Source: Gamaleyavirus AN24P2. From it: a stretch of 64,000 nt of DNA. The stretch lies in the sequence record OZ035810.1, one strand, 5' to 3'. Position 1 is the stretch's first letter; every line of letters begins with the position of its first letter. This document shows positions 1,408-28,164 of the stretch, piece by piece. The translations under genes and the position numbers were made by a program. Under the pieces are notes generated by a model. That model was not told where the DNA came from. It searched no databases and saw nothing but the letters and a program-made list of their open reading frames with translations.

Positions 1408-2032
1408 ACAGAAACTTGCTGCAAAAGGTGGTGCAGTGGGAGGGGTTATCGCTGCTATTCTGGGGGCAGTGTTTTATATGGAAGGAGGGTATGTAAATAA
1501 TCCTCGTGACCCAGGTGGTGAAACTAATCATGGTATTACCCAAGCTGTAGCTAAATCCCATAAAGAAGTTCTGGCTACTGAGTATGGTTGGGATGGTTCT
1601 ATGAAGGGTTTATCTAAAGAGATGGCTGCTGAGATATACATTGATGACTACGTACTTAAGCCTAATTTCGTAGCCTTCGCTAATATATCTCCTGCTATAA
1701 CACACAAACTGGTTGATGCTGGTGTTAACACAGGTGTAACCAGACCAGCTAAGTGGTTGCAGCAATCCCTCAATGAAATGTCCCGTAATGGCAAAGACTA
1801 CCCTAAAATACAGGTTGATGGTAAAGTCGGTGCAAGTACTGTTAATGCATATAAAGCATTACAGAAAAAGCGAGGCAAAGTTGCAGCATGTCGGGTAATG
1901 ATTAAGTTACTTGATGCTAAACAACTGAACCATTACACCTCATTAAACATGCCGGATTTTACGTATGGTTGGGTAGCTAACCGAATTGGCAATGTGCCAC
2001 TGGAGGCATGTAATGAAGATGCTAATCTCTAA
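1397..2032 (+). CDS. endolysin, GH108-type N-acetylmuramidase
   Basis: 211 aa; EGGYVNNPRDPGGETNHGIT matches the GH108 signature; N-terminal hydrophobic segment (possible signal-anchor). Confidence 0.75.
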   Translation: MKAKQKLAAKGGAVGGVIAAILGAVFYMEGGYVNNPRDPGGETNHGITQAVAKSHKEVLATEYGWDGSMKGLSKEMAAEIYIDDYVLKPNFVAFANISPAITHKLVDAGVNTGVTRPAKWLQQSLNEMSRNGKDYPKIQVDGKVGASTVNAYKALQKKRGKVAACRVMIKLLDAKQLNHYTSLNMPDFTYGWVANRIGNVPLEACNEDANL

Positions 2033-2519
2033 AGGTTGGCCTTATCTTCTGGTGGTGGTCCTTGGGGCCACCATGTACTTTTGGGGTAATTCCAACGGAC
2101 AGTCTACTGTTCAAAAGAAGTGGGATGACCAAAAGGCTGAAGACCTAAAGACAACGCAAAAATTGCAGGATAAATACAATGCTCTCCAAAGAAACCATAG
2201 TTATGAAGTCGGGATACTCACTTCACGGTTGCAGACGGCTGAAAGTAATTACGCAAGCGAGCTTGCTCGCGTTAGCAGTGATTACGACAGCCGGATGCAA
2301 CAGTCTGAAAGACGAGCATCGGTATATAAACGTCAAGCCGAAGCCGGAACCCTTGAGTGCAGAAGTCTTGCAAGCTATGCAGCCAGACTCGACAACAGTC
2401 TTGAAGAAGGCAGACGTTTGGTTGAAGAACTCCAGGCAACTGTTAGACTCCGTGACAACCAACTAATTGAGTTGGGTAAACAAATTCAGGCTGACCGTAA
2501 ACTTTTTGAACAGGAATAA
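2013..2519 (+). CDS. i-spanin (Rz-like)
   Basis: ORF 1986..2519 opens with TTG; ATG at 2013 preceded by GGAGG; N-terminal TM segment then charged coiled-coil region. Confidence 0.55.
2203..2466 (+). CDS. o-spanin (Rz1-like lipoprotein) embedded in the Rz gene in another frame
   Basis: ORF 2179..2466 lies wholly inside the Rz ORF; signal peptide ending ...LAVITTAGC (lipobox-like Cys) and Pro-rich mature part (VKPKPEPL). Confidence 0.5.
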   Translation: MKSGYSLHGCRRLKVITQASLLALAVITTAGCNSLKDEHRYINVKPKPEPLSAEVLQAMQPDSTTVLKKADVWLKNSRQLLDSVTTN

Positions 2520-2521
2520 CT

Positions 2522-4792
2522 ATGGAACACCAAGACACTTTTAAGCCTTTACCAGACCCGGCTCAATCAGAGAAGTTAACGGACTGGAAGAAGGAACCAA
2601 GTATCCAATTACTGAAGGGTGATTTGGAATCAGCTAAACCTGCTCACGATGCAATCATGGCACAGATTCGTGAGTGGAATGATCTTATGGAAGTTAAGGG
2701 TAAGGCTAAGCCACCAAAGGTGAAGGGACGGTCACAAGTCCAACCTAGACTGGTTCGCCGTCAGGCAGAATGGAGATATGCTCCATTGTCTGAACCATTC
2801 CTCTCTTCTAACAAACTCTTTAAGGTAACTCCGGTTACTTTTGAAGATGAATTAGCTGCACGTCAAAATGAACTGGTTCTTAACTACCAATTCCGTACCC
2901 AGCTTAATAGAGTAAAGCTGGTAGATGATTACGTGCACAGTGTTGTGGATGATGGTACTGGTATTGCTCGTATTGGCTGGGAACGTAAGACTGTTAAGAT
3001 TAAAACAGAAACTCCAGTATTCCAGTTGTATCCAATTGAGAACCAGGAACAAGCAGATGTTCTTCAACAGGCTCTACAGCTTCAGGCAGAAAATCCCCGT
3101 GAGTATGACGAGACAATGCCAGAGGATATTAAGGAAGCTGTTAACTACTTTAATGAAACTGGTGAAGCTACTTATGCAATCCAGACTGGGGTTACTGAAG
3201 TAGAAGTAGAGAAAGCACTGGTTAACAGACCTACCGTTGAAATGCTTAATCCTAATAACGTAGTTATTGACCCAAGCTGTAATGGTGATTTGGATAAGGC
3301 TCTGTATGCAGTTATCTCCTTTGAGACATGCAAAGCAGACCTTATGAAAAACAAAGACCGTTATCACAACCTAGATAAAATTGACTGGGAAAGTTCTAGT
3401 CCTATTACTGACCCAGACCATGAAAGTAAAACCCCTAGCGACTTCCAGTTTAAGGATGCACTACGTAAGAAAGTAGTTGCTTATGAGTACTGGGGATTCT
3501 ATGACATTAATGATGACGGTTCACTGGAACCAATTGTTGCTACCTGGATTGGTTCTACTCTTATTCGTATGGAGAAAAACCCATTCCCTGATGGTAAGTT
3601 ACCTTTGGTAGTTGTTCCCTACATGCCCCGTAAACGTGAACTCTTCGGTGAAGCTGATGCTGAATTGTTAGGAGATAACCAAGCAATTCTCGGTGCAACT
3701 ATTCGTGGAATGATTGACCTGCTGGGTCGTAGTGCAAATGGTCAACGTGGTTATCCTAAGGGAATGTTAGATACACTTAACCGTCGTCGATATGATGATG
3801 GACAAGACTATGAATATAACCCAATGCAAGGTAACCCTAGTCAGGCCATTATGGAACATAAGTTCCCCGAGTTACCTCAATCAGCAATAGTAATGACTCA
3901 GATGCAGAACCAGGAAGCTGAATCACTAACTGGTGTTAAAGCATTTTCCGGTGGTGTAACTGGTTCAGCTTATGGTGATGTAGCTGCTGGTATTCGAGGT
4001 GCACTTGATGCAGCATCCAAACGGGAGATGGCAATTCTTCGTCGATTAGCTAAAGGTATGGCAGACATTGGTACTAAGATTTGTGCAATGAATGCTGTGT
4101 TTTTATCTGAGAAAGAAGTAGTACGTATTACCAATGAGCAGTATGTAGAAATTAATCGTGAAGACCTTAAAGGTAATTTCGACATTGAGGTTGATATTAA
4201 TACTGCTGAAATTGATAACCAGAAATCTCAGGATTTGAGCTTCATGGTTCAAACATTGGGTAATACGGTTGACCAAACTATTACATTATCTCTTGTAGCA
4301 AAGATTGCAGAGCTTAAACGTATGCCAGACCTTGCTCATGAGTTACGTAATTGGAAACCACAGCCAGATCCTATGGAAGAACAGCTTAAGCAGTTAGCAA
4401 TTCAGAAAGCACAACTAGAGAATGAAGAGTTGAAAAGTAAGATTGCACTTAATAATGCTAAGGCTAAAGAAGCTGCTTCCAGTGGTGACCTTAAAGATTT
4501 GGATTATCTGGAACAGGAATCTGGTACTAAACATGCCCGAGATATGGAAAAACAAAAAGCACAATCTCAAGGAAACCAAAACCTTCAGATAACTAAGGCA
4601 TTGACAACACCCGTTAAAGAAGGGGAAACTACCCCCAACATATCTGCTGCTGTTGGATATAATACTTTGACTAACGGGAACTCTATACCAGAACGTGATT
4701 TAGCTGCTCAACAAGACCCGGCTTACTCACTTAGTTCCCAATACTATGACCCTAGCCAAGACCCAGCATCGGCTCTTGGTATGAACCTATAA
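2522..4792 (+). CDS. portal protein
   Basis: 756 aa; size and position upstream of scaffold-like and major capsid genes match N4-type head module. Confidence 0.75.
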
Positions 4793-23400: not shown

Positions 23401-24774
23401 GCCTATGAGCAATCTATTGACCCTAACATGCTGAAGCACATTGAGGGTGAGAACCATCTTGCTCGTGCAATTGGTGTATGGCGTGGTCGTCAGGTAGAGG
23501 AAGCTAAGGCCCAGCGTTTCAACGATATGCTGATTGAAAATCTGCATAGCATGTACGAGAACGACATTAAAATGTCTGCCTCTAATAAGTCCCAGTATGT
23601 GAACCTTCTTGGTTCTAAACTGGACCCAGTAACTGCTGATGCTCTTAAACTGATGAACACTGAAACACGTCAGAAAGCAGAAAGCCTGTTTGGACCCGGT
23701 GAACTGTGGGTTCGTCGTGATATGCTGAATGATGCACTAGGCTATCGTGCAGCTTCTGTAGGTGATGCCTGGTCTGGCAATTCTCGTTGGTCCCCAGAAA
23801 CACTGGATACCTTCAAGAAAGCTATGTTAGGTGTATTTGGCAACCGTGCTTACAAGTACGTAATGGGTGGTGAGAACCTGGTTCAGAACTTAGTTAAAGA
23901 AGCTAAGACTCTGATTGTAGTTAAGTCAGTAGTTGTACCTGCTGTTAACTTCTTAGCTAACCTTTACCAGATGGTTGGTCGTGGTGTACCTGTTAAGAAC
24001 ATTGCTAAGAGCATTCCACAGAAGACTGCTGAGATTAACCAGTACCTGAAATCTCGTCTGCGTCAGGTAGATGCAGAAGCAGAATTACGAGCAGCTACTA
24101 ATCCGAACCAGATTCGTAAACTTAAAGCTGAGATTCAGTCCATTACTGATAGTCATAAGCGTATGAGTATCTGGCCTCTATTAGAAGCTGGGGAGTTCTC
24201 TTCAATTGCAGATGCTGGTATTGGACGTGATGATATCCTGATTACTGAGGGTAAACTCCATGAATACATGGATAAGCTGGCTGATAAGTTACCTAAGTCA
24301 GTACGTACTGCTGGTCGTTATGCACTTATCACTAAGGATACTGCTTTGTTCCAGGGTATCCAGAAAACGGTTGAGTACTCTGACTTTATCGCTAAAGCAA
24401 TCATCTATGATGACTTAACTCAGCGTAAAGGTAAGACACGTGAAGAAGCACTTGGACGTGTAACTGAAGAGTTCATTAACTATGACCGTCTGCCGGGACG
24501 TTTCCGTGGCTATATGGAAAGTGTTGGTCTTATGTGGTTCTACAACTTTAAGATTCGTTCTGCAAAAGTTGCAGTGTCCATGATTCGTAATAACCCGGTC
24601 CATGCAGCAATGGCGATGTTGGCTCCAACTCCTACCATGTTTGGTAACGTTGGCTTACCTATTCAGGACAACATCTTTAGCATTGCTGCTAAGGATAGTC
24701 TGGATTACTCTTGGGGCTTTGGACAAGGGCTTCGTGCTCACAACCTGAACCCTTGGATGAACCTGGTAAACTAA
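14416..24774 (+). CDS. virion-encapsidated RNA polymerase (giant vRNAP)
   Basis: Single ORF of about 10.3 kb; track start 14398 is TTG, first ATG at 14416 preceded by AGGAAA; a protein of this size in this position is diagnostic of N4-like phages. Confidence 0.85.
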   Translation: MSTFDRLAGFADSITNAKQVDVSTATSQKQAAQGQSPFQLTPENAYNLQTGRVGNLGIGAFEPGSLQADFTQASPLEILNKYGNEQGLQILNSRANAADAVRQDLSKQRTNAEAFGDTLSGVGLGVANTLGGIAALGTGLVNDNAGASIASGMDWLNEGVHNLQSDALNVTRKVVQNQNQISAQKNQKLYEQDIKNGESSLVASLSRIGRDAFDSVANTLDNGMAATDGLSEGVGSLFTGGPLIRGVSALGKVMVGGDKAVKGITLAAELGSRPAQVALSAGRVAAPAIAIGGMEAGGAYQQTASEIMKMSHQELASKSPVYQQHIADGLSPDEARRQTASETGIIAAGLTAPVAAATGPLVSKFELNPLKVGSLVGAGSNMLRETVEEGIQSGTSQFAQNKAIQGNVDAKRDLLKGVGEQAGLGALYGFGSAGVAQAPGATVKAVGATAGPALRTTLAGASLVGSALAKAASPLTNILVQRGEEVAKRNEQASPVADATVNAAAQEAAAQAEQAQATVQEAVDAMDISPEEKAAATQYAADLTQAMKFDPVELEQTNPAIREAVSGSTNRVEAIQKMADLVNTAEDPNVQMEAAIQMYDNIMSMDSFINRDPGALANLEQGSPAAAIVDQFSGLMANVQNTPKVLRAFRAIHSMIQEQAEAGKLKATEEANQAQANNIAMAADVSPEVLDVESVNMVLKHASEGKITLGNRQRAALQSAAALLQGAREFDAKAEELGLRPQDIVSKQIKTDESRSNEGQYSALQHAKRIRSAYNSGNFDLASAYLDDFMKFAQHMQNKVGALNEHLISGNADKNKSVHYQALTPSREWVRSRTGLGVNPYDTKSVKFAQQVGLEAKTVADIVNALATAYPELNVSHVKVTPLDSRLDKPAAQVVKEFRQGNLDAAQSQQTNEPVNQVDETPVTKQEPVTPTVQTKPSVSEAVKTEPTIKESKPQSVKEPENQSEKQDAAITNEDTTQEVAETKTEMEAVFPVYNNDKTPSQFLKAFALPEEPKTRTIGSESPLTDVKQALSSAARFEAFTQKENNALTSDVMKRYQDLLGFGETLKTTLSDRLAKFLANKNVGKRFAEGTEANRWVGGKLLNIVEQDGDTFKFNDQLLETAVLAGLQWRLTATQNAAVKDMKDIAAITGVEASLLPEGILAEFENAQTLVEATSSLAQKIESYWGLNRNPNAPLGYTKGIPMAMATEILSSLIEMGEVKESMLDVSEIDPASDKTVGLYTIEKLDDNDAINNFPTAIEEAVLVEPEEKMYFGDDIPSVAQTQLRNPAVKNTPEQKAALKAEQATEFRVHMPMVNFYEALGRDNILELMGAGTLNPELLNVNTAKSLEGKNLSVSMAYDSLFGVINQVQEQENGLDTPIHYGYNMTRVGRMQMLGKNNPQSSKLVREAILPTFSTIDLSNENSQTFSDFQLGLAQALGIKVHNMSREAMSEKLTKALEGNLKPAVDMMVEFDKSGHLPVDAVDILKTSLGGDKSFVALMALMEYARYLNSDDRANFNTPLYVEADGVTNGPINAMVLMTGGKFTSDWVKNTAKGGLFFGKAGKTMNEHRSQDDSVDLYEASTNSLQQALNELRTTYRNNVPVMNQMNHLQKLMDLFIKDFNLNEDGTLDLKRGIAKNPLTITIYGSGARGIAGKMVSAITDTIYERFSDVLQARAADPSISPAMAMFGKEAASETDAQAMLDTFLTSMEALTGNVPVMRKGELSIQQVEGALTGKLDPQKFTVSGNALKNLQENMLHLFVEPMRTGIRNTVGEGLMHSTENLQKATQIQSLVLQDMFQQAVQTKLAEKEKDPTWKKGDFLTQKELNEIQESLSPLAPMIETGSQTFYIAGSENTDVANQVLATNLDDRMRVPMSIYAPSQAGVAGIPFMTIGTGDGMMMQTLSTMKGAPKNTLKIFDGMNIGINDITDASRKANEAVYTSWQGNPIKNVYDSFAKFMKNVDFSKLSDETKQAIAKSALEYDQREGATDALLRAGAEQIERNLRNIALGVDIRHKVMNQVQTTVDQMAAVGAPYVNNGKISLEGLTVDQQVAKLNELFDAELNKRRDAVRAAKAEPVKEVPAIEQVGRVLKSGVRLLSNTAISKLAKEMSQEQQAVLKEVQKSPAAKDYKVVYGTPAQLDAYAIEKNITRPAPEDIEAAEAGNAYGWTNFEDKTIYLVTPSLETLVHELVHASTFESVLTHYEGTPNEAVQNIEDLMNQFRALDVKDESPAVREAYADALNTINGHLSNGFIEPSMAKAAALNEYMAWGLTNRELISKQKKTTALKTMVQAVYEAIKRLVFGRKKAPANADDMFSGLLFNSAVVMRGQAPTAAVAKDTTLFHNKAYGDNTRLEELGKTFDKLITDYIGSEPVQQVIRKGKFSDAVVNATKVTRDVQAHGFAMNMQEQRLFTNIVAALATEAAINPAALARAQEYYTHVTKNLTVEAFMADPDSTNPADRYYAQQKFDTIMGANNIEFDAQGRSSLLPTFVGLAMVSEEVRKVLADIPVMKADKQSGNTVDAMLTNIGTAAMASLNARVAGDTKATNVQEGMDALAQTIMQTSLNAQSFYDSVATPSGNAIDRANQYLVDSIDVLSTRALEGAREVAANTKNPLVKGAAHAAQLIAAIATEKNGEIVAEGVMAAMNQGKVWQPFHDLVNDLTGRTKSNASVYDLIKAVRAQVQADRQQFREHLPTTIASKFSRKLTNDEWKAMHTGMGKTDLAVLRDTMSLAEIRDLLSDQKIVDREVNKLEADLQKQAGRNWPLISRKSKQLAQFMINGTVGNNLLRNATAISRLLGERKTTSSIVDVAKLDKLITLYALEAMSNTDREMLSSLAQTEVDGIDFATSYLVGQRKDEMAKAKSDMRATLNQYKGYIPGETKQGVNLIVAEDSQFADLIEKSYVRLGTYQGSSANRGPARSYYFAPVQAQAPFSQGILQNVRNTAGGVDLGTGFTMGTMVAGRITDKPSVDRITKALARGERGNEPLLPVYDDKGNVVAYEQSIDPNMLKHIEGENHLARAIGVWRGRQVEEAKAQRFNDMLIENLHSMYENDIKMSASNKSQYVNLLGSKLDPVTADALKLMNTETRQKAESLFGPGELWVRRDMLNDALGYRAASVGDAWSGNSRWSPETLDTFKKAMLGVFGNRAYKYVMGGENLVQNLVKEAKTLIVVKSVVVPAVNFLANLYQMVGRGVPVKNIAKSIPQKTAEINQYLKSRLRQVDAEAELRAATNPNQIRKLKAEIQSITDSHKRMSIWPLLEAGEFSSIADAGIGRDDILITEGKLHEYMDKLADKLPKSVRTAGRYALITKDTALFQGIQKTVEYSDFIAKAIIYDDLTQRKGKTREEALGRVTEEFINYDRLPGRFRGYMESVGLMWFYNFKIRSAKVAVSMIRNNPVHAAMAMLAPTPTMFGNVGLPIQDNIFSIAAKDSLDYSWGFGQGLRAHNLNPWMNLVN

Positions 24775-25167: not shown

Positions 25168-25548
25168 TTAAATGGTGCAACCACCACCGTCACAGGTGTT
25201 GTTTTCTGCAAAGGAAGCTAAAGCCTTAGCAGTTTCTTCTTTTTCATGCAGTGCCTGACGTAGCAGGTAACCCTCCAATTCCCAAATCTTATTGAATGCA
25301 TTTTCATATGCATATTGACGACCCTTCTGCTCATCATAGATAGTCGGGTCAACACAGGCAGATACACCTTCAATTTTGAAGCCGTTTTCCAGGATAATAA
25401 CGCAATGGGTTACCAGACCCAGGTTAGCCAAATCGTCTGCAGGTAGTGCAGAAGGGTTAACGAAGGCAGATTTCACTGCATCAGCACCATTGAAATAGTA
25501 GACGCTCTTAATCTTAGCTTCAATTGATTCTTTACTTACTGTTGCCAT
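25168..25548 (-). CDS. conserved phage protein, function unknown
   Basis: 126 aa ORF, C-terminal CDGGGC motif. Confidence 0.45.
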   Translation of the reverse strand: MATVSKESIEAKIKSVYYFNGADAVKSAFVNPSALPADDLANLGLVTHCVIILENGFKIEGVSACVDPTIYDEQKGRQYAYENAFNKIWELEGYLLRQALHEKEETAKALASFAENNTCDGGGCTI

Positions 25549-25717
25549 TATTAGCCTCGTAGAGTGGTTTGAGTTTGTATTTAAACATGACTGCGTTGTT
25601 ATAGGCTACGCTACCTGCAAACACCAAAGACTTACGTCCTCGGTTATCCGTTACCTCATAGGCATACGGGGTTAGGATTAAGTCAATCATATGAATCGTC
25701 CAATAAATAGTTCTCAA
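25532..25717 (-). CDS. hypothetical small protein
   Basis: 61 aa ORF overlapping upstream gene end. Confidence 0.3.
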   Translation of the reverse strand: MRTIYWTIHMIDLILTPYAYEVTDNRGRKSLVFAGSVAYNNAVMFKYKLKPLYEANNGNSK

Positions 25718-25756
25718 ATAAAAAAGTCCCCCAGAGTGGCGGCTCTGAGGGACTTA
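25718..25756 (-). terminator. rho-independent terminator closing the tRNA-like transcription unit
   Basis: agtccc...cagag/ctctg...gggact extended stem with A-run on + (U-tract on -). Confidence 0.55.
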
Positions 25757-26000
25757 GTGCTATTTACCCATAGCTGGGAGGCTTGTATGAACTTTATGAG
25801 TACCAGGTTCAGGTAAGCTTAACTGGTGTGCTACTTGGATTGATAGTCCACTCATATTGCTCAGGCTAGGATTTAAGGAGTTCCTATTCTCCAGCGAAAT
25901 TCCCGTCGAGGGGAATAACAATACATTAGCAGCCACTGGACTGTCTTACCAGTGTTGTCTTTAGAGTGCTATGCAATCAGGACTATGTTACTGCTGAATG

Positions 26001-26077
26001 GGTGTCCACTACTGGATTTGAACCAGTGACTTTCCGATTATTAGTCGGTTGCTTTCCCCGTCTAAGCTAAGTGGACT
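26001..26077 (-). tRNA. tRNA gene, isotype unresolved
   Basis: Hand fold of reverse complement: 7-bp acceptor GTCCACT/AGTGGAC, D-stem GCTT/AAGC with GG loop, T-arm ACTGG-TTCAAAT-CCAGT, 73-nt body; anticodon loop CTAATAA gives unusual anticodon AAT; CCA not fully encoded. Confidence 0.5.
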
Positions 26078-26083
26078 TATTAT

Positions 26084-26159
26084 GGTTACCCAGGCAGGAT
26101 TCGAACCTGCGTCCTAGTTGGTTTACTAGTGGGGCTTTACCACTAAGCCTACTGGGTAT
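26084..26159 (-). tRNA. tRNA-like gene with aberrant anticodon arm
   Basis: 7-bp acceptor TACCCAG/CTGGGTA, D-arm GGCT-TAGTGGTAA-AGCC, T-arm GCAGG-TTCGAAT-CCTGC, encoded CCA, 76 nt; anticodon arm folds only as CTAGT/ACTAG with a 6-nt loop. Confidence 0.4.
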
Positions 26160-26671
26160 TAATAGGGGAGTCATGCCAGGCTTTAACTGGCTCCTTCTTC
26201 GCAATCCTTACATACCCCTACATAATTATTGCGTTAAGCTTTTTTGTTTAAGTTTAAGTGAAGGCGTTCTTGCTGACTCATTGTTTGGTTTCCTGATTAC
26301 ATGGGCTTCCACCATATCATGACGAGTTTGAGTCCGTGGAGCGACTTCCTCAGTGCAGTTACCTGCCACCTGTAAACAGGCGTTCTTTGGTCCATCGTCT
26401 TCAACCATACTGTCTTAACCATATAGGGATTCAGGCAGTTCTGGCGGTAATCAGGAAATCTGGTTTGAGATGGGAGTCCGAGTCCTGTACAGCCTTACCG
26501 TCTCCACATTGGCAGCGTATCTAGAATAGCACTTCCGGGTACGGATTTAACTGTTACATCTCAAATGTGGTAGGGGCGTCCAGAGGTTTCATCTGATACT
26601 TACGCCGTCGTATGGTTACGACTTACCCCCATAATTCTTACAATTCAGAGTAGCACTGTTGCAGTCGTCAC

Positions 26672-26752
26672 TGCCCATAGGTAAGGATTCGAACCTTACA
26701 ATACCGTTAGTTTGCAACGTCGCTGTACCATTTCGCGTTCTATGCAATGCTA
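26672..26752 (-). tRNA. degenerate tRNA-like element
   Basis: Canonical T-arm TAAGG-TTCGAAT-CCTTA, but I could not pair an acceptor stem or find a U33/R37 anticodon loop. Confidence 0.25.
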
Positions 26753-26757
26753 CTTTG

Positions 26758-26824
26758 AATTGGTTCCGGCGTCTGGACTCGAACCAGAACACTCACGTTT
26801 GTGCACAACGCTAGTACCTACACC
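26758..26824 (-). tRNA. truncated tRNA-like element
   Basis: Acceptor TCCGGTG/CGCCGGA, T-arm TCTGG-TTCGAGT-CCAGA and encoded CCA, but only about 67 nt with no room for a D-arm; hairpin loop GTGCACA. Confidence 0.3.
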
Positions 26825-27720
26825 GGAATTAATTGCCAGGGATTCCACCTGGCTCCATCTGTTTTTATAGTCACTCAGATATCGTCTGGACTTTAATAGT
26901 ACAACCTATCAAAGAGTACACTAAGCACAGGTAGCTACCCTGCCGTCTTCTCTATCTACACCGGCTACAGTATAAACCTCCGCACGTTAGCCTAATGTAC
27001 TCATTGATAGGATGTCATAATAGGGGAGGGAGGACGAGTCCCTCTTTACCCTATGGTTTAGTTTACGTGTAAGACCTAACATCTCGATGCTGGATGAATA
27101 GCGTAATGAACTATCCGACATTATTGGTTAATATTGTGCTCAACATGAGCGTTAGTTGATAAGGGATCTGAAGCCTTATCCCGAAGATACTAACCTTTGG
27201 GGTATAGCCTAAGATTCAGAAATGGCCCCTATAGGGAGAGGCCATTGATTAACCCGAATGTTGCTTTACATTTTCTGAGATAACCCATTCTTAAAATAGT
27301 CTGACTGACGGATGGGAGCCAACCCTAGCGTCAGTGCCATACGGCAAAGATTAAGTTAAGAAAGGTTATGATAGGAGTTCCTATCTCAAAGGATTCTAAC
27401 AGAACCCTTCACGATATTAACTACCCACTATGGAATAATTTATTTTTTACAACAGGCACCGCGCCCAAGAAAAAGCTAATTTTCCACTTAGTTTAGATTG
27501 AACCAATGGACTGGGGAGAGTATTCCAATCCACTGGTTCGGTTGTTGTTGTTACTCTGGCGGCTTGTCACCACCTTGTTTACCACTGCATTTCCACAGGA
27601 TAATGACAGTGATGATAAAAGCTATGTATGGAGCCGACACGTCTATAATCCTGACCAGTAGTAGCATCAGGACTATAAACACTACCACACCTAGCAGCAG
27701 CTTCTGAGCCACCTACCAGA

Positions 27721-28164
27721 TTAACTACGTTTGAGGCCAGCGAACAGTGAAGGCTTAGCAGCAGGTTTCTCTGCTGGTTCTTCAGCCTTAACTTCTTCCT
27801 GCACAATTTCTTCTTGTGCTTCTGGTTCAGTCACTGCTTCTTCTTCAGGTTCCGACGTAGAACTCTCGTTCACTCCACCAGTAGAGGTCTGGGTTTCTTC
27901 TACCTTTACCTCTTCAACTACATCTTCCGGCTCTGGTTCTACCGGACGGTGTTTAGCTTCCTGAGGGTTCTTACGAGAACGACGTGTCTTCTTCTCTACC
28001 AAGGGTGGAGTATCATCGTTATGACTTACCTCTTCATTAATACCAACGGAGGCTGTACCATCTGCATTGATGACAATACTAACATCACCAGCAAGATTGA
28101 TTTGATCATCGACATAAGCTTGTACAGCAGCTTCTACTTCGGACTGGTTCAAAATGATTTGCAT
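27721..28164 (-). CDS. hypothetical protein with acidic/basic C-terminal tail
   Basis: 147 aa ORF; C-terminal half rich in E/P/K. Confidence 0.45.
   Translation of the reverse strand: MQIILNQSEVEAAVQAYVDDQINLAGDVSIVINADGTASVGINEEVSHNDDTPPLVEKKTRRSRKNPQEAKHRPVEPEPEDVVEEVKVEETQTSTGGVNESSTSEPEEEAVTEPEAQEEIVQEEVKAEEPAEKPAAKPSLFAGLKRS

Follow-up and report, generated by a model that had tools for sequence, protein, structure and literature searches.

The 64,000-nt stretch of Gamaleyavirus AN24P2 DNA analysed here (record OZ035810.1; hereafter the window) is 100% identical to OZ035740.1 and belongs to a G7C-like, N4-like podovirus that infects E. coli. The gene for the virion RNA polymerase (3458 aa, plus strand) ends at 24774 and the genes to its right lie on the minus strand, as does the subject of this report, an array of two transfer RNA (tRNA) genes and what we read as a set of eight or more conserved small RNAs, either tRNA mimics or otherwise structured, most of which fall outside described RNA families. 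The array occupies a gene-free block of ~1.8 kb (25757-27550). A first-pass annotation had taken the whole of 25718-27720 to be free of protein genes, which holds for 25757-27550: no conserved open reading frame (ORF) is present, the ORFs that can be drawn are purely mechanical (41-83 aa) and each spans module junctions, and they are intact only in near-identical relatives, being absent, frameshifted or interrupted by stops elsewhere. Three minus-strand ORFs of the block that were tested (58-60 aa) have no PHROG match. At the right end the claim fails, since a 53-aa frame (27551-27712, minus strand), membrane-protein-like by reading, is a real gene outside the RNA block: it matches phrog_19025, and 18 of 19 relatives, some of them from other genera, keep it intact. 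A 15-bp hairpin directly after this gene (27497-27535, minus strand) lies inside the segment 27498/27501-27750, which aligns in other genera jointly with the 53-aa gene, and probably marks the end of the upstream mRNA. At the opposite end, the strong terminator that the annotation had placed 3′ of the array is present at 25724-25755 (minus strand) as a 13-bp stem (25755-25724) followed by UUUUUUAUUU, a U run; this predicted intrinsic terminator would close the RNA array, and its hairpin also lies under a weak, terminator-like Phe_leader match in Rfam.

The first-pass annotation also listed four minus-strand T-arm signatures, and these are found as described. The motif GGTTCRARTCC occurs four times in the window (26014, 26097, 26685 and 26775), every copy on the minus strand and within the block, against a chance expectation of 0.04, and none of 100 shuffles reaches four. 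Two copies belong to tRNA genes. The first, tRNA-Ile with anticodon AAU (26001-26076, minus strand), is a canonical cloverleaf with an incompletely encoded CCA, called by ARAGORN and scored at 65.6 bits by the Rfam tRNA model (gathering score 29); its anticodon stem covaries among relatives, and its loop, CUAAUAA, is the sole one in the array to combine seven nucleotides, U33 and a 3-nt anticodon. The second (26083-26158, minus strand) has canonical acceptor, D and T arms and an encoded CCA together with a 6-nt anticodon loop, AAACCA. ARAGORN reports it as tRNA-??? (ac), the Rfam alignment (42.8 bits) leaves the anticodon region unaligned, and the loop is unchanged in four relatives (L001, L002, L004 and L014). 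Published genomes of the genus list 'tRNA-Ile-AAT, tRNA-Undet, tRNA-Cys-ACA' (PMC11927229), with the remainder of the block blank or filled with small hypothetical coding sequences (CDS). As side observations, an A at the wobble position, unusual for bacteria, occurs in Gamaleyavirus tRNAs both in Ile-AAU (26001-26076) and in a Cys-ACA of relatives (L015, 8180-8258); tRNA-Ile(AAU) is 76-81% identical to phage tRNA-Met(CAU) genes; and a gene like the unit 26083-26158 in the Klebsiella phage 05F01 (Stephanstirmvirinae; L113, reverse complement, ~570-650 of the examined stretch) carries a 9-nt anticodon loop, GACUUAAGA, with the palindrome CUUAAG, and is not called by ARAGORN.

The remaining two T-arm copies lie in units termed G (26634-26757) and H (26761-26828), one with a 5-nt loop inside a long stalk and the other without a D arm. 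Both are tRNA-like and both are missed by every tRNA model, by ARAGORN and by Rfam even in a permissive scan of 25500-27900 at E <= 10, so that the ARAGORN and Rfam check proposed in the first-pass annotation recovers two units only, 26001-26076 and 26083-26158. Across the window, a search with all 4227 Rfam 15 families at gathering score returns nothing beyond these two tRNAs; there is no match to a group I intron, RNase P RNA, ribozyme or GOLLD/ROOL-type large phage RNA among the Rfam families, and neither ARAGORN nor Rfam finds a transfer-messenger RNA in the window. Among the permissive matches, that to Plastid-ycf2 (E 7e-06; 38.3 bits, below the gathering score of 65.7) falls on the antisense strand of tRNA-Ile, that to YrlA (17.3 bits against 69, E = 3.3) merely spans the junction of the two tRNAs, and the remainder have E > 1. 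A resemblance by eye between RNase P RNA and short stretches of elements E (GAGGAAGUCGCUCCA) and A (CUGGUAAGACAGUCCAGUGGC), described below, finds no RNase P model match and is set aside as a short-motif coincidence; no connection was found between the block and the Pas small RNAs of E. coli prophages (bioRxiv 10.64898/2026.05.13.724894).

Read 5′ to 3′ on the minus strand, the block consists of I, LH, H-leader, H, G, F0, F, E, D, the 6-nt-loop tRNA, tRNA-Ile, A, a 165-nt tail and the terminator. Element I (27014-27424) is a multi-hairpin 5′ domain of ~410 nt with a strong folding signal relative to shuffled sequence (z = -4.8) that is collinear with the start of a non-coding island in kuravirus FH3. 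Both strong hairpins picked out earlier, GATAAGG/CCTTATC (27158-27180) and ATGGCC/GGCCAT (27222-27245), are present and lie within this 411-nt segment. LH (26904-27013) is a 110-nt hairpin with a ~22-bp stalk (z = -6.6; 0 of 200 shuffles fold as well), and the stalk is paralogous to that of G and to stalks in FH3 and Salmonella phage TR2. H-leader (26834-26896) comprises AGUCCAGACGAUAUCUGAGUGAC-UAUAAAAACAGAUGG and the hairpin GCCAGG-UGGAAUC-CCUGGC (26835-26853), which covaries (GCCAGG/CCUGGC, GUCGG/CCGGC, GCAGG/CCUGC) as judged by eye on aligned copies, without a formal pair count. Element H is a D-armless tRNA mimic with an encoded CCA, an 8-bp acceptor, a 5-bp T stem and a covarying anticodon-like stem that presents the palindromic loop GUGCAC(A), 6 or 7 nt long depending on the phage. 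G (fold z = -2.9) is built around a tRNA-like core (~26665-26745) that has a canonical T arm and an anticodon loop of 5 nt, and this core is embedded in a stalk of ~22 bp that bears a side hairpin; covariation in the T stem and acceptor of G is seen in L003, L010 and Salmonella phage TR2.

Downstream of G lies F0 (26568-26631, minus strand like all elements named here), identified by searching for stems with 7 bp or more that lead into a CCA. It is a miniature tRNA-like unit of 64 nt whose terminal stem has 7 bp; it encodes CCA and contains the hairpin CAGA-UGAAACC-UCUG. Its slot is taken by a true tRNA in some relatives, and it is kept jointly with F in the Klebsiella N4-like locus L020. Element F (26461-26565) is a 105-nt structured RNA with 32 predicted pairs, a 9-bp terminal stem and an encoded CCA. 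Element E (26286-26458), supported by covariation and a fold z of -2.7, spans 173 nt and combines a 12-bp terminal stem and encoded CCA with a T-loop-like hairpin, AUGG-UGGAAGC-CCAU, beside the 3′ strand and four internal helices. Element D (26163-26290; fold z = -2.2) is a conserved leader module ending in the hairpin GCCAG-UUAAAGC-CUGGC, 16 nt ahead of the next tRNA, and by nhmmer it is restricted to Gamaleyavirus, bar a weak match in Shigella phage DS8. At the tip of one hairpin in D (26215-26240, minus strand), AUGUAGGGG/AUGUAAGG form a direct repeat; similar to it is a G-rich repeat present three times (AUGUAGGGGU twice plus AUGUAUGGGU) at the end of a DS8 island (L096/L111, 2450-2496); such repeats could be a protein-binding site or a G-quadruplex motif. 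Element A (25922-25999), defined with RNAalifold on relatives, has a 66-nt core, GCAG...CUGC, closed by a terminal stem, with the hairpin CACUGG-UAAGACAGU-CCAGUG beside its 3′ strand. A GUC/GAC loop pseudoknot is likely in A because a contact from the loop to the 5′ strand covaries (alignment columns 13 and 51, U-A to C-G). In the 3′ tail between A and the terminator (25757-25921), the 3′ 118 nt are conserved, and 25874-25714 is 92.5% identical to L017 compared with 51-63% at codon position 3; its 58-aa mechanical ORF is unconserved and has no PHROG match.

A common architecture runs through these units. Terminal stems of 7-12 bp followed by CCA close H, F0, F, E and the 6-nt-loop tRNA, the spacers between units measure 1-9 nt, and each unit places a hairpin with a ~7-nt loop directly before the 3′ strand of its terminal stem, in the form of a canonical T arm in H and G and of GGA-CUCGGAC-UCC in F. 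In tRNA, the acceptor/T-arm minihelix is the part seen by RNase P and the CCA-adding enzyme. From the predicted folds, the terminal stem and adjoining hairpin of the block units correspond to this minihelix, with the decoding half altered or replaced: H lacks a D arm, G has a 5-nt loop and is embedded in a stalk, and E, F and A have bodies unlike tRNA.

The predicted helices change in a manner that preserves pairing. For H, 10 distinct sequences from Schitoviridae and Stephanstirmvirinae have 98.9% of cells paired, with compensatory changes at 5 of 18 pairs, and control alignments in which the register was slid pair at 26-50%. For E, five sequences that include temperate phages have 96.1% of cells paired and 9 compensatory pairs, and compensatory changes are likewise present at 7 of the 32 predicted pairs of F and at 3 of the 16 RNAalifold pairs of A. 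Covariation across related phages, one of the points on which the first-pass annotation had made its proposal depend, is seen in H, E, F and A. Because G-U pairs sit inside covarying helices (for example H columns 7-60 and 18-34, and E columns 104-117), the minus strand is the functional one, as RNA. Compared with N4/KP8-like phages, the flanking genes for a RuvC-like protein and a single-stranded DNA-binding protein are 54-68% identical in protein and 38-49% at codon position 3, and H is 90-94%, F 91% and A 84-90% identical (A is found in N4, at 84%, in Klebsiella N4-likes, and in L024, at 90%). Within the genus, the 5′ 290 nt of I are 95-98% and D 95-100% identical against 81-88% at codon position 3. 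By this measure, both the non-decoding mimics and the non-tRNA modules diverge far more slowly than neutral sites and appear to be maintained.

The block is syntenic with the N4 tRNA cluster (Asn, Ser, Thr, Pro), which lies in a 1.5-kb stretch of the N4 RefSeq genome (NC_008720; L122, 32112-33632) without any annotated feature between gp47 and gp48; this stretch holds four canonical ARAGORN tRNAs of those specificities together with homologues of H, F and A. In this syntenic position, N4 and Klebsiella N4-likes have 2-4 canonical tRNAs, compared with mostly 0-2, and at most 3, in the scanned Gamaleyavirus loci. Relatives align to the block in 3-9 pieces with insertions or replacements between them, so that module content varies greatly among close relatives, and module boundaries are sharp; upstream of H, for example, relatives carry very different sequence, often the 3′ end of a tRNA. 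Sub-pieces of the block also match unrelated phages. In the Vequintavirinae phage KaOmega, F is flanked by tRNA-Asp and tRNA-Glu, and H lies between tRNA-Tyr and tRNA-Asn in 05F01, where the GUGCACA loop is kept and the stem is remade. Homologues of E adjoin tRNA-Met and an integrase in a Casjensviridae phage and occur in temperate-like metagenomic contigs; G recurs with an LH-type stalk in Salmonella phage TR2; and kuravirus FH3 is collinear over I, stalk, leader and tRNA-like end. H-leader is present in N4-likes, FH3, Klebsiella and E. coli prophages and Shigella phage DS8; it occurs in ~10 non-N4 contigs besides E. coli prophages. As for the host, H-leader alone matches E. coli chromosomes (14 genomes), where the one locus opened, in strain PT62, is a prophage; tRNA-Ile matches phage-like plasmids; and a host origin of the block is rejected, as nothing matches core genes.

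Several observations on these other phages stand apart from the block itself. In DS8 (L096/L111, 2365-3209) and the PT62 prophage (L112), H-leader belongs to an island of ~0.8 kb that lacks ORFs; the island is located in the structural gene module and runs antisense to the late genes on either side. Comparable H-leader islands in siphophages and prophages (L093, L094, L096/L111, L098-L101, L103, L104, L106, L112 and L008) continue with tandem units of the form 'GCCGG-GAAAGA-CCGGC hairpin + ACACAAC..AGAGCAYUG [variable] CAGUGCUCU..GUUGUG', and also contain tRNA-like 3′ parts and a terminator of their own; the islands have no Rfam match. One IMG/VR viral contig that bears such an island, L100, carries two CRISPR-DR4 repeats at 290-377 that may be a phage-borne mini-array. 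In the temperate-like contigs L118 and L121, a perfect rrn-type boxA (CGCUCUUUAACA) lies upstream of the E-like RNA, which suggests antitermination of an untranslated RNA operon there; the block of the window has no rrn-type boxA antiterminator.

We consider it probable, at somewhat better than an even chance, that 25757-27424 on the minus strand is a non-coding RNA operon descended from, and still containing, a phage tRNA gene cluster. The polycistronic tRNA and non-coding RNA unit proposed in the first-pass annotation, with its undescribed structured RNA, survives in this form: two of the T-arm elements are tRNAs, and the remainder consists of modules with compensatory changes and no Rfam family. 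The finding as we read it is a phage tRNA cluster with accompanying RNAs that are predicted to be stable, among them several undescribed RNA families. A single transcription unit is suggested because the units share a strand, are spaced by 1-9 nt and are followed by a single strong terminator. One or a few polycistronic transcripts would end at 25724-25755 and be processed as a tRNA operon is, with RNase P cutting 5′ of each terminal stem, RNase III possibly cutting within the 22-bp stalks, and 3′ ends trimmed by exonucleases or repaired to CCA by the CCA-adding enzyme; the outcome would be a set of stable small RNAs. Co-transcription and this processing route are read from anatomy; the role of the mimics is likewise inferred.

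The tRNA cluster of phage T4, with rnaC (species 1) and rnaD (species 2), is the nearest known case. Both are tandem arrays on one strand, and in T4 the tRNA genes give way, after tRNA-Arg, to stable RNAs of 119-139 nt that are not tRNAs, with spacers of 1-7 nt. Moreover, in rnaC the 3′ strand of the terminal stem is immediately preceded by a canonical T arm (CCGGGUUCGAAUCCCGG) and the body is not that of a tRNA, which is the architecture of E, F and H; the full T4-type layout, in line with tRNAs on the same strand, with terminal stem, T-arm-like hairpin and non-tRNA body, is found in E, F, F0, H and A. The function of rnaC and rnaD is still unknown (PMC9697503). By blastn, the likeness does not extend to homology with T4 rnaC or rnaD, as matches are 8-12 nt long and the best is the 11-nt T-loop motif. 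In contrast to T4, non-tRNA and mimic units outnumber true tRNAs in the Gamaleyavirus block, leaders, 22-bp stalks and a 410-nt domain are added, and the modules are common to many phage families. Ordinary phage tRNA clusters, such as those of N4, KP8-like phages, Vequintavirinae and Stephanstirmvirinae, have the same strand arrangement and packing, and that of N4 has the same position, but in the block only one unit has a normal 7-nt anticodon loop and the others cannot decode.

A number of points weigh against the operon interpretation. The transcripts, their 5′ and 3′ ends and their stability are predicted here from sequence. No convincing promoter was found: the sole sigma-70-like match upstream on the minus strand (27420-27393) is unconserved in the homologous FH3 island, and H-leader, compared by eye with sigma-70, sigma-54, sigma-E, sigma-28 and T7-like patterns, has a variable -10 (TATAAA, TTAAAA, TTTAAA) and no conserved -35. 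The architecture is not uniform, as G has no free CCA end and the CCA of tRNA-Ile is not fully encoded, and F (z = -1.0), A (-1.1), F0 (-1.2) and the tail (0.0) fold no better than shuffled sequence. The alignments are small (5-14 sequences), so that many changes may be single inherited events; exact-pattern scans of IMG/VR, metagenomes and GTDB genomes gave few new relatives of F, H and E, which keeps the alignments shallow. Recent horizontal transfer, and not lasting purifying selection, could also account for part of the similarity across genera, yet even if such transfer contributes, the differences that exist are compensatory. Lastly, the role we prefer for the mimics, that of decoys, is a guess.

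Rather than separate small RNAs, at least I, LH, H-leader and H (~660 nt, 27424-26761) might form one large structured RNA with a tRNA-like 3′ end, like the large phage RNAs that lie beside tRNA genes, with palindromic loops that might multimerise. The collinear order of I, stalk hairpin, leader and tRNA-like CCA end in the unrelated kuravirus FH3 and the very strong fold signal of I (z = -4.8) and LH (z = -6.6) speak for such a molecule, as do the loop palindromes: GUGCAC is conserved in H while its stem covaries, and the sub-loop of F is palindromic in both of its versions, UCUAGA and UCGCGCGA. We nevertheless regard a single large RNA as unlikely. The parts are separable, since several Gamaleyaviruses have tRNA-Ala directly after I in place of LH and H, and N4 has H without I; the 4227 Rfam families, which would include curated large phage-associated RNAs, give no match; and ~28 six-base palindromes are expected by chance in 1.8 kb (an estimate from ~1 in 64 positions), which makes loop palindromes weak evidence.

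The block could also be what is left of a dying tRNA cluster, in which an N4-like array lost decoding in Gamaleyavirus and the remainder is pseudogene debris that has yet to be deleted. The lower number of canonical tRNAs compared with N4 and Klebsiella N4-likes is in keeping with decay, the 5-nt and 6-nt anticodon loops, the absent D arm and the odd A34 anticodons resemble damage, and module content differs much among close relatives. Debris, however, is not expected to be conserved far beyond codon third positions, to alter its stems by compensatory substitution, to take the same non-decoding forms in unrelated phage families or to hold a 6-nt loop constant in several phages, and 1.8 kb of junk throughout a genus would be surprising in a podovirus whose genes abut. 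We find this account improbable, and the suggestion of decayed tRNA genes in the first-pass annotation applies only in part: units that do not decode are there, yet they and the non-tRNA modules appear to be maintained.

Less probable again is a function at the level of DNA, in which the block would serve, for instance, as an origin, as a site where recombination or cassette exchange takes place, or as a group of promoters and terminators, and the hairpins would act as DNA or regulatory signals. The sharp-edged modules are indeed shuffled like cassettes, the leader hairpins are also terminator-like on the plus strand, H-leader precedes varied cargo that includes a protein gene in L094 and L100, and the direct repeat of D (AUGUAGGGG/AUGUAAGG) has its counterpart in triplicate in DS8. 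On the other hand, G-U pairs in the helices become A-C mismatches on the opposite strand, which argues for selection on one strand as RNA; T-loop motifs, and acceptor-like stems that encode a CCA, are characteristic of RNA; and true tRNA genes are interleaved with the modules.

That the block encodes several very small proteins, as the annotation of phage Bas96 implies with ~12 CDS of 30-70 aa and as the mechanical ORFs of 41-83 aa would permit, is hardly credible given that the ORFs cross module junctions and are broken in all but near-identical relatives, that the three tested have no PHROG match and that substitutions are compensatory in RNA helices and not codon-periodic. In the Bas96 record (L003), 14 hypothetical CDS cover the matched stretch including the flanking genes, and the ~12 within the homologous RNA block (1761-4152) lie on both strands; these are probably over-calls. 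Beyond the block, the scanned neighbouring ORFs match only PHROGs of unknown function, except for a 147-aa protein with a weak match to RusA-like resolvases (E 2.6e-4). As a side observation, the 126-aa protein downstream of the block (25168-25548, minus strand) belongs to phrog_322, of unknown function, and 'anti-CRISPR protein' is the label it has in the related phage 24-32N.

A processed RNA operon remains the reading that we favour, and precedents for mimics of this kind exist. MALAT1 mascRNA, the tRNA-like RNAs of gammaherpesvirus 68 and the 3′ tRNA-like structures of plant viruses do not decode; RNase P and the CCA-adding enzyme recognise them as tRNA mimics, and they set RNA ends or engage tRNA-binding proteins. 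They belong to other kingdoms and lack homology to the block, so that they are alike in principle only. The bacterial Y RNA-like YrlA, in which a long protein-binding stem bears a tRNA-mimic domain, resembles G and its FH3 and TR2 relatives, where a long conserved stem is likewise joined to a tRNA-like domain lacking a free CCA end; the YrlA model in Rfam is, however, permuted, with the T arm before the D arm, whereas G has the normal order and its stalk extends the acceptor stem. The role that we would prefer for the mimics, as a guess, is to engage host tRNA-binding proteins, for instance by serving as decoys or substitutes in the face of defence nucleases that target tRNA. A decoy or sponge role is plausible because phage tRNAs can defeat tRNA-cleaving defences, and they are known counter-defences against such systems (PMC10264068, PMC11464382, PMC11555353). 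The anti-defence tRNAs that act against PARIS, retron effectors and PrrC have anticodon loops unlike those of the host and are kept for evasion and not for codon supply (PMC10264068, PMC11464382, PMC11555353), but they still decode; most block units cannot, and by this analogy decoys or sponges would be the only role open to them there. More speculatively, the palindromic loops (GUGCAC in H; UCUAGA or UCGCGCGA in F) may support loop-loop dimerisation.

A wider proposal, which we put forward tentatively as a possibility short of an even chance, is that the modules form an undescribed, horizontally mobile superfamily of phage 'minihelix-capped' RNAs. Each would carry a non-decoding body on a tRNA acceptor/T-arm, be excised and stabilised by the tRNA-processing enzymes of the host, and be exchanged as a cassette among at least six lineages; the function may be to bind or divert host proteins that recognise tRNA, such as tRNA-cutting defence nucleases, or to build RNA-only complexes through the palindromic loops.

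Phage tRNA clusters are usually annotated as a few tRNAs and gaps; in this cluster most of the content lies in the gaps. At least eight conserved structured RNAs, none of them in Rfam, appear to occupy a block that is blank even in the N4 reference, several recur in tRNA arrays or non-coding islands of unrelated phages, and many 'hypothetical proteins' that GenBank records place in this region are probably annotation errors. If the units are processed, stable tRNA mimics, the 50-year-old puzzle of T4 RNA C and RNA D would extend to a wide family, N4 and G7C would offer tractable E. coli models for it, and the array would bear on how phages cope with tRNA-targeting immunity.

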